Shown here: piece by piece, positions 24,711-25,403 of the stretch
How positions within the stretch are numbered: position 1 is the stretch's first letter
Layout: each line of letters opens with the position of its first letter
IMG/VR virus record: IMGVR_UViG_2690315831_000002
DNA length: 37,164 nt
Origin: a virus
Lineage: Duplodnaviria; Heunggongvirae; Uroviricota; Caudoviricetes
Strand: one strand, 5' to 3'
Notes under the pieces: model-generated
Databases searched by the model: none
What the model saw: only the letters and a program-made list of their open reading frames with translations
What the model was told of the DNA's origin: nothing
Translations under genes and position numbers: made by a program

Positions 24711-25403
24711 ATGTCGATGTACACAACCGCCCAGCTGCTGGCGGCAAATGAGCAGAAATTTAAGTTTGATCCGCTGTTTCTGCGTCTCTTTTTCCGTGAG
24801 AGCTATCCCTTCACCACGGAGAAAGTCTATCTCTCACAAATTCCGGGACTGGTATCCGGTGCGCCTGTATGGGCGTCTGAACATCAGTCCACGCTGAGCG
24901 CGGGGTATCTTCATGCCCGGACGAACGTTCCCAGCAGTGATGATCTGAACGGGATTAACGTGAAATACCGTTATGAGTTTACGGACACACTGGGGATGGT
25001 GACGTCGTTCAGCTATGCAGGAGACAAGAATCGCCAGCTTACCCGTTACAGCGATACCCGCTGGCATGAAGATTCCGTGCGTAACCGCTGGTTCAGCGTG
25101 ATGGCGGGGCCGTCTGTACGCGTGAATGAATGGTTCAGCGCGTATGCGATGGCAGGCGTGGCTTACAGCCGTGTGTCGACTTTTTCCGGGGATTATCTCC
25201 GCGTAACTGACAACAAGGGAAAAACGCACGACGTGCTGACCGGAAGTGATGACGCTCGCCACAGTAACACCTCTCTGGCGTGGGGAGCTGGCGTGCAGTT
25301 TAACCCGACCGAATCCGTGGCCGTTGATGTCGCTTATGAAGGCTCCGGCAGTGGCAACTGGCGCACTGACGGGTTCATCGTGGGTGTCGGTTATAAGTTC
25401 TGA
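24711..25403 (+). CDS. lom: E'-'lom in-frame fusion ORF (major capsid N-terminal 47 codons joined to a Lom/Ail-family OMP lacking its signal peptide); deletion scar
   Basis: First 47 residues '[48 protein letters not shown]' equal the lambda gpE N-terminus as recalled; remainder ('[12 protein letters not shown]...[22 protein letters not shown]') is Lom-like; everything from E to J is absent. Confidence 0.7.

Follow-up and report, generated by a model that had tools for sequence, protein, structure and literature searches.

An in-frame fusion of capsid and outer membrane protein genes as the probable scar of a recent deletion in a lambda-like prophage of Escherichia coli

An open reading frame that begins as the major capsid protein of a lambda-like phage and ends as an outer membrane protein raises two questions, namely, how such a gene came into being and what its presence says about the prophage that carries it. 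The frame considered here (693 nt, 230 amino acids, plus strand) lies at positions 24711–25403 of a 37,164-nt stretch of DNA, which is referred to below as the window. An earlier note, made from the letters alone, read the frame as an E'-'lom fusion left by deletion of most of the capsid gene E and of all tail genes, and took the prophage to be a domesticated element. Our analysis leads us to consider it highly probable that the frame is the scar of one deletion in a lambda-like prophage of about 48.5 kb at icd, that this deletion was recent and is confined to one clone, and that it left behind a dead chimera in an element that is eroding.

The E'-'lom fusion is real. Comparison with lambda, with the free phage 2H10 and with the prophage of E. 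coli E203449 resolves it into two parts that share a single codon:

24711–24854, plus strand: E', the first 48 codons of the major capsid gene, preceded by the native upstream region (143 of 144 nt identical to E of 2H10)
24852–24854, plus strand: deletion junction, the trinucleotide GTA common to the E side and the lom side (three-way alignment with both E203449 sites)
24852–25403, plus strand: 'lom, Lom residues 17–199, comprising the end of the signal peptide and the whole mature barrel (Ail_Lom Pfam profile; E203449 Lom)

Residues 1–48 of the fusion are identical to those of lambda gpE at all 48 positions, so that the similarity to the capsid protein is no shorter than had been read from the letters. 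The Phage_cap_E profile (PF03864) is matched at positions 1–51 of 329 only, with 19.5 bits against a gathering score of 22.9, and the full HK97-like capsid fold, which spans the roughly 329 positions of this profile, is lacking in the fusion. From position 24852 to the stop codon, the frame matches lom of 2H10 and of the E203449 prophage, and this part comprises a complete beta-barrel as judged from the Ail_Lom profile (PF06316; E=1e-109, 365 bits, profile positions 16–199 of 199); 181 of its 183 residues are identical to E203449 Lom, to which it is closer than to lom of 2H10. Alignment to lambda, which the earlier note had proposed as a check, places the left endpoint of the deletion at lambda nt 6278, after E codon 48, whereas the right endpoint was mapped on 2H10 and E203449 because lambda's own lom is a diverged allele. 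The E-side and lom-side matches overlap by 3 nt (GTA, 24852–24854), and the original reading (47 residues of E, a junction near 24850, then mature Lom) agrees with this to within the valine codon that both sides share.

Upstream of the fusion, window positions 18578–24854 are colinear with nt 1–6278 of lambda (NC_001416) over 6,278 nt at 97.7% identity. This stretch holds a packaging module of the lambda type, in which cos is followed by nu1, A, W, B, C/nu3 and D in lambda order and then by E codons 1–48:

18578–18589, plus strand: cosN (GGGCGGCGACCT), where the colinearity starts at lambda nt 1 (exact 12-nt match, 0.06 expected by chance)
18767–19312, plus strand: nu1, small terminase subunit, intact, 181 aa (full-length tblastn match, 98.9% to 2H10; Pfam Phage_Nu1)
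19287–21212, plus strand: A, large terminase subunit, intact, 641 aa (full-length tblastn match, 99.2%)
21209–21415, plus strand: W, head-tail adaptor, intact, 68 aa (tblastn, 100%)
21412–23013, plus strand: B, portal, intact in the window, 533 aa (tblastn, 99.4%)
22994–24313, plus strand: C/nu3, S49 protease and scaffold, intact, 439 aa (tblastn, 100%; PGAP annotation in the A35 genome)
24323–24655, plus strand: D, head decoration protein, intact, 110 aa (full-length tblastn match, 97.3%)

When all 23 structural proteins of 2H10 (NC_049950) were compared with the 37-kb window by tblastn, full-length matches (97–100% identity) were obtained for Nu1, A, W, B, C and D. The only match of E is the fusion frame itself (24711–24971, 55% over 107 residues), with the real similarity stopping at residue 48, and the match of Lom begins at residue 17. 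FI, FII, Z, U, V, G, T, H, M, L, K, I and J have no match anywhere in the window. Thus, the E–J genes are absent from the window and have not been moved within it, so that it holds neither the complete E, FI and FII nor the tail genes Z–J of a lambda-like phage. Relative to lambda, the element lacks the equivalent of nt 6279 to about 19,030, which runs from E codon 49 past J into the start of lom; furthermore, the lom allele is not that of lambda but one found in 2H10 and many E. coli prophages, and the element is integrated at icd, whereas lambda occupies attB-lambda. Accordingly, the earlier description of a prophage that keeps cos, terminase, portal, protease and D, has lost the rest of E through J, and is particle-defective with most of E and all tail genes gone, stands, and the missing genes do not turn up elsewhere in the window.

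What has been lost can be read from the E203449 prophage (NZ_CM128603.1), the kind of related prophage with which comparison had been called for. It occupies the same chromosomal site, with an icd' fragment followed by iraM, ymgK, ycgX and bluR on its right side. The two prophages are colinear over the lysis genes and from cos through D and E codon 48 (95.6–98.2% identity, with the head genes at 98.2%); colinearity resumes at lom codon 17 and extends over stf, the acyltransferase gene, the pin pseudogene and the McrBC-like pair to attR (99.2–100%, including lom and stf). Left of the lysis genes, the two match in patches only. Unlike the window, E203449 keeps the full E–J block of about 12.7 kb between D and lom: between its two copies of GTA lie 12,739 bp that comprise the remainder of E, the genes FI, FII, Z, U, V, G, T, H, M, L, K, I and J, and the start of lom (48 nt). 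Its own damage is of another kind: stf is interrupted by IS insertions, and M is frameshifted. Phage 2H10, which resembles the window in its head module (98.9%) and in the allele family of its lom, also differs from it in having the block of about 12.7 kb whole. The window element (about 35.75 kb) and the missing 12.74 kb add up to about 48.5 kb, the size of the lambda genome (48,502 bp). One internal deletion in a full-size lambda-like prophage appears to explain the whole structure.

We propose the following course of events. A lambda-like prophage of about 48.5 kb, integrated in icd, would have undergone a RecA-independent, microhomology-mediated deletion with breakpoints after E codon 48 and at lom codon 17, which have only GTA in common, and would have lost 12,739 bp, that is, E codons 49–341, FI–J, the J–lom spacer and the first 48 nt of lom. 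Because the perfect microhomology is 3 nt long and no longer repeat is present, we infer illegitimate recombination without RecA, through either replication slippage or microhomology-mediated joining. As a sign of mechanism, the GTA is suggestive but not proof, given that junctional identity of at least 3 nt is expected, by our own arithmetic, at about 5% of random joins. The reading frames would have matched by chance, giving rise to the 230-aa E'-'Lom chimera; since the prior for an in-frame outcome is one in three, a selective explanation is unnecessary. The chimera would be made from the late operon after induction only and would stay in the cytoplasm without function. The remaining element of about 35.75 kb would be able to excise, replicate and lyse the cell; heads and tails could not be built.

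The presumed lack of function follows primarily from the fate of the signal peptide. Of the native Lom signal peptide, the fusion retains VSGAPVWA only, preceded by 47 residues of the gpE N-arm where native Lom has MRKLYAAILSAAICLA, so that the n- and h-regions, the charged and hydrophobic parts, are missing. Within the first 60 residues of the fusion, the highest 9-residue Kyte-Doolittle mean is 1.34, against 2.63 for the native Lom h-region, and by this calculation the Sec signal peptide typical of the Ail/Lom family is gone. An older gene call that starts at codon 44 and yields 187 aa is likewise devoid of the h-region. Because the h-region has been lost, as seen in the hydropathy calculation, neither Sec export nor insertion into the outer membrane is expected, and the fusion is very probably a dead, non-functional by-product, as had been suspected from the absence of a Lom signal peptide. 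Expression is likely to be altered as well. In lambda, lom is expressed in lysogens, and the lost J–lom spacer presumably held its lysogenic promoter; a promoter scan of positions 24200–25600 found no sigma-70-like consensus. With the spacer and its presumed promoter gone, the chimera would be transcribed with the late operon only. A putative terminator behind the frame has been kept from the parent:

25430–25451, plus strand: terminator-like hairpin with a T-run directly 3' of lom (terminator scan, consensus match only)

Another hairpin, GGCCGC-CTGT-GCGGCT followed by T-runs, occupies the D–E intergenic region immediately before the E' start codon (24676–24710); it lies inside the lambda-colinear stretch and is missing from the output of the terminator scan.

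The fusion is rare. With window positions 24600–25460 as the query, 4,787 of 5,426 complete E. coli genomes match some part, and the junction is spanned in only 3 of the 5,426: A35, from a rat in Australia; A3024, from a patient in China; and OkiPb01694, from cattle in Japan. The junction is also found in the assembly from which the window was taken (GCA_001467005.1, contig ATLW01000001.1). In all three genomes, the element occupies the same site and, across the roughly 32.5 kb in common, agrees with the window at 99.9% (differences of about 0.07–0.1%), and their right chromosomal flanks of 9.8 kb differ from one another by 1–2 nt. The few carriers, the near-identity of the element and of its flanks, and the common site all point to a single recent deletion in one E. 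coli clone that is geographically widespread but rare. In a collection of 15 billion proteins, the fusion forms one cluster of 11 sequences, all from E. coli and named 'Ail/Lom family' only; these stem from roughly 130 E. coli contigs, with 40 + 2 for the 230-aa form and 86 for the alternative 187-aa call. A search of the literature for this specific E–lom deletion found no specific report. One database protein, from a 2.9-kb ENA contig, has the identical E'-'Lom junction and a different 3' allele of lom (GRHSN), as if lom had subsequently recombined with a second prophage copy.

The remainder of the element is that of an ordinary lambdoid prophage with a considerable load of additional genes. 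Its ends and the region downstream of lom are laid out as follows:

1–1143, minus strand: integrase, at the left prophage end, with intact icd just outside the window (annotation of A35, to which the window aligns at 99.98%)
25468–29069, plus strand: side tail fibre gene stf, with N-terminal (phage_tail_N) and S74 chaperone domains, split by a −1 frameshift
29118–29240, plus strand: tfa remnant, C-terminal fragment only (PGAP annotation; tblastn match of tfa residues 147–179)
35471–35638, plus strand: icd' duplicate, at the right prophage end, attR (PGAP annotation; exact repeat search)

The window begins at the integrase stop codon, beside intact icd, and the 3' end of icd recurs as a 47-nt exact repeat at 35498–35544. 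From the annotation of the 99.9%-identical A35, A3024 and OkiPb01694 elements, together with Pfam, we recognise int, xis, exo, bet, gam and kil, an HTH+S24 cI-like repressor, a Cro-like HTH protein, O- and P-like genes, ninE, rusA, Q, and genes for a holin, a lysozyme and Rz. By gene content, then, the integration, immunity, replication and lysis modules all appear to be in place, and the element is predicted to be inducible and lytic but to yield no particles. No N-like frame of at least 30 aa is evident between kil and the SIR2 gene (window 4795–5381), the place of pL-N in lambda; the only candidates there are a 32-aa hydrophobic frame (5008–5106) and a stretch that extends kil upstream in frame and starts Arg-rich.

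The earlier note had also listed immunity, recombination and defence genes among those kept, and the repressor, int/xis, exo/bet/gam and several genes of the defence type were indeed found. The moron genes comprise SIR2, PRTase-CE with NADAR, DUF3800, Iss/Bor, an acyltransferase and a McrBC-like pair. The SIR2 protein (535 aa, 5382–6989, minus strand; Pfam SIR2_2; PADLOC candidate PDC-S25, 779 bits) is encoded directly downstream of the cI-like repressor gene (7096–7824), in the position of rexAB in lambda, and by this analogy is probably expressed in the lysogen. PRTase-CE (339 aa) and NADAR (205 aa) are encoded as a pair at 10614–12247 on the plus strand, in the interval from the replication gene P to the nin region; in A35, but not in the other genomes, PGAP calls them 'anti-phage' proteins, and their PADLOC matches are weak (E of about 1e-8). 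Between Q and the holin gene, in the opposite orientation (15516–16319, minus strand), lies the gene for the DUF3800 protein (PADLOC candidate PDC-M04A); this is the moron slot in which Stx phages carry stx. Finally, the right arm, which stretches from the tail fibre remnants to attR (29545–34774), contains the acyltransferase gene (minus strand), a pin-type recombinase pseudogene and the pair of an AAA_5 ATPase and a McrC-like protein. The layout of this arm at icd is reminiscent of e14 of K-12, which sits at icd and carries pin and mcrA.

Besides the deletion, the element bears lesions of two further kinds. The side tail fibre gene is broken into two frames (25462–27012 and 26892–29069) that differ in phase, with a run of seven A residues at 26915–26921 where E203449 has eight; this frameshift is common to all four members of the clone and is flagged by PGAP as 'frameshifted' in all three genomes. 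Beyond stf, only the C-terminal fragment of tfa and the pin pseudogene remain. In A3024, the portal gene lacks 169 bp (window about 22342–22510; A3024 locus about 17899–17911) and is likewise called 'frameshifted' by PGAP. The missing segment is flanked by short imperfect direct repeats, GACGGGCTGG and GCCGGGCTGG, and appears to represent a second microhomology deletion, the same type of event as that which joined E to lom. The apparent decay of Q, ybcN and ybcO in A35 was rejected as a sign of erosion, because these genes are intact in the window, A3024 and OkiPb01694: A35 differs from the window by five indels, each a single extra G (at window positions 12666, 13397, 14094, 14993 and 18409), which cause PGAP to call the three genes pseudogenes and are most likely sequencing errors.

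Although the element cannot build particles on its own, its cos-bearing DNA might be packaged after induction if a second lambda-like prophage of the same cell provided gpE, FI, FII and tails, or else the lost block might be restored by recombination through the D/E' and lom/stf flanks. We regard such dependence on a helper as unlikely, even though several observations speak in its favour. The cos site and the genes for terminase, portal and scaffold are undamaged and match lambda at 97.7% identity, and each of the three genomes has two further places that match the D-E'-lom query, so that other lambdoid prophages are present and a copy of E–J is likely to exist in another prophage of the same strain. 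Exchange with such prophages seems to take place. The window differs from the three otherwise 99.9%-identical genomes by a cluster of 15 SNPs in B/C (21421–23869), private to the window; at 12 of these 15 sites, it differs from 2H10 and E203449 as well as from the three genomes, and at the other three, its base is that of 2H10 or of E203449. This cluster is most simply accounted for as a conversion tract from another resident lambdoid prophage. A precedent comes from E. coli O157 Sakai, in which Asadulghani et al. described the rescue of defective prophages by complementation and recombination, with head- or tail-defective prophages being packaged and transferred by virtue of other prophages in the cell (PMC2669165). 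Rescue of this kind, however, would be open incidentally to any fresh deletion mutant and would not amount to an evolved strategy. Furthermore, size stands in the way: lambda packages DNA of 78–105% of its genome length, about 78% being the minimum for efficient terminal cos cleavage and stable particles (a lower limit reportedly described by Feiss and Siegele in 1979), and the element, at about 35.75 kb, reaches about 74% of lambda length.

The claim that the element has been domesticated and is maintained for its cargo fares worse, and we consider it improbable. Under this claim, the host would keep the defective prophage for its beneficial genes (SIR2, PRTase-CE/NADAR, DUF3800, McrBC-like, Iss/Bor and acyltransferase), and the deletion would have been favoured because it disarmed the phage. 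It is true that the defence-type and serum-resistance genes are present and intact and that the element is known from rat, patient and cattle isolates on two continents. Yet a phage that retains int, xis, O, P, Q, holin, lysozyme and Rz has not been disarmed, and induction is still expected to kill the cell, unlike in the case of a tamed element. Moreover, the acyltransferase and McrBC-like genes of the right arm are also carried by the E–J-retaining prophage of E203449, so that this cargo is not tied to the prophage being defective. Domestication is said, by Bobay, Touchon and Rocha in 2014, to mean vertical persistence across diverged hosts together with purifying selection. Here, the element with the junction is confined to a single near-identical clone (3 of 5,426 genomes), which is young and offers neither persistence across diverged host lineages nor phylogenetic depth for retention. 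Divergence among the members of the clone is too small for purifying selection to be detectable, and dN/dS is uninformative because the differences are few and mostly belong to the one 15-SNP recombination tract. That seven packaging and head genes in a row are intact might in principle be due to selection instead of youth, but intact head genes are the expectation for a young deletion, and in A3024 the packaging module is already broken by the 169-bp portal deletion. We therefore prefer to see in the element a case of ordinary early prophage decay, with erosion continuing in the stf frameshift and the loss of the A3024 portal. For the lambdoid prophages of O157 Sakai, loss of morphogenetic genes by deletion and through IS elements is the norm, with only 3 of 10 lambda-like prophages keeping all of them (PMC2669165).

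A more elaborate version of helper dependence, and a very improbable one, would make the element a stable 'hemi-satellite' that nucleates proheads with its own portal and scaffold, parasitises co-resident prophages for capsid and tails, and so spreads its defence cargo. The known phage satellites (PICI, cf-PICI and P4-like) measure about 10–20 kb; the present element, at about 35.75 kb and with full regulation, replication and lysis modules, is not of this kind, and no satellite-type genes were seen in its annotation. We give next to no credence to an assembly artefact, or to a rearrangement that placed E–J elsewhere, since, for all that lambdoid prophages are repeats able, as a general possibility, to confuse assemblers, the identical junction recurs in four independent assemblies, namely the source assembly of the window and three closed genomes from different laboratories, its flanks are colinear with one single sister prophage, and the 37-kb window contains no E–J fragments and no tblastn match to FI–J, rearrangement being rejected on this ground within the window.

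The preferred interpretation, a scar of a single recent deletion, has a practical corollary for annotation. The fusion shares with the Ail/Lom family (PF06316) the complete mature region of the 8-stranded barrel and differs from it in that 47 residues of the capsid N-arm stand in place of the signal peptide's n- and h-regions. In RefSeq, it bears the name 'Ail/Lom family outer membrane beta-barrel protein' (WP_235399659.1 and WP_249439757.1), which hides its chimeric nature; both entries are deletion chimeras that are probably unable to reach the outer membrane. The sequence of the fusion being public already, the significance of this result is mostly one of annotation hygiene.

Beyond annotation, the element belongs with a well-known class of defective prophages. 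The cryptic prophages of K-12 (e14, DLP12, Rac and Qin) have similarly lost morphogenetic genes and kept morons, and e14 occupies the same icd site as the window element. In O157 Sakai, the lambda-like prophages Sp3, Sp4, Sp14 and Sp15, among others, also lost morphogenetic genes, by deletion or through IS elements, while keeping their morons, and some of the defective prophages of that strain can still be induced and may be rescued by other prophages in the cell (PMC2669165). The clone described here thus offers a natural test case for the rescue of prophages without heads and tails by co-resident lambdoids, although the phenomenon as such is already documented (PMC2669165). Compared with the defective prophages of Sakai and K-12, the window element is much younger and less decayed, with one clean deletion, one frameshift and an in-frame chimera. 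It appears to capture a clean and datable first step of a lambda-like prophage on the way to becoming cryptic, in the form of a 12.7-kb deletion, a homopolymer frameshift and, in one descendant, a second, small deletion.
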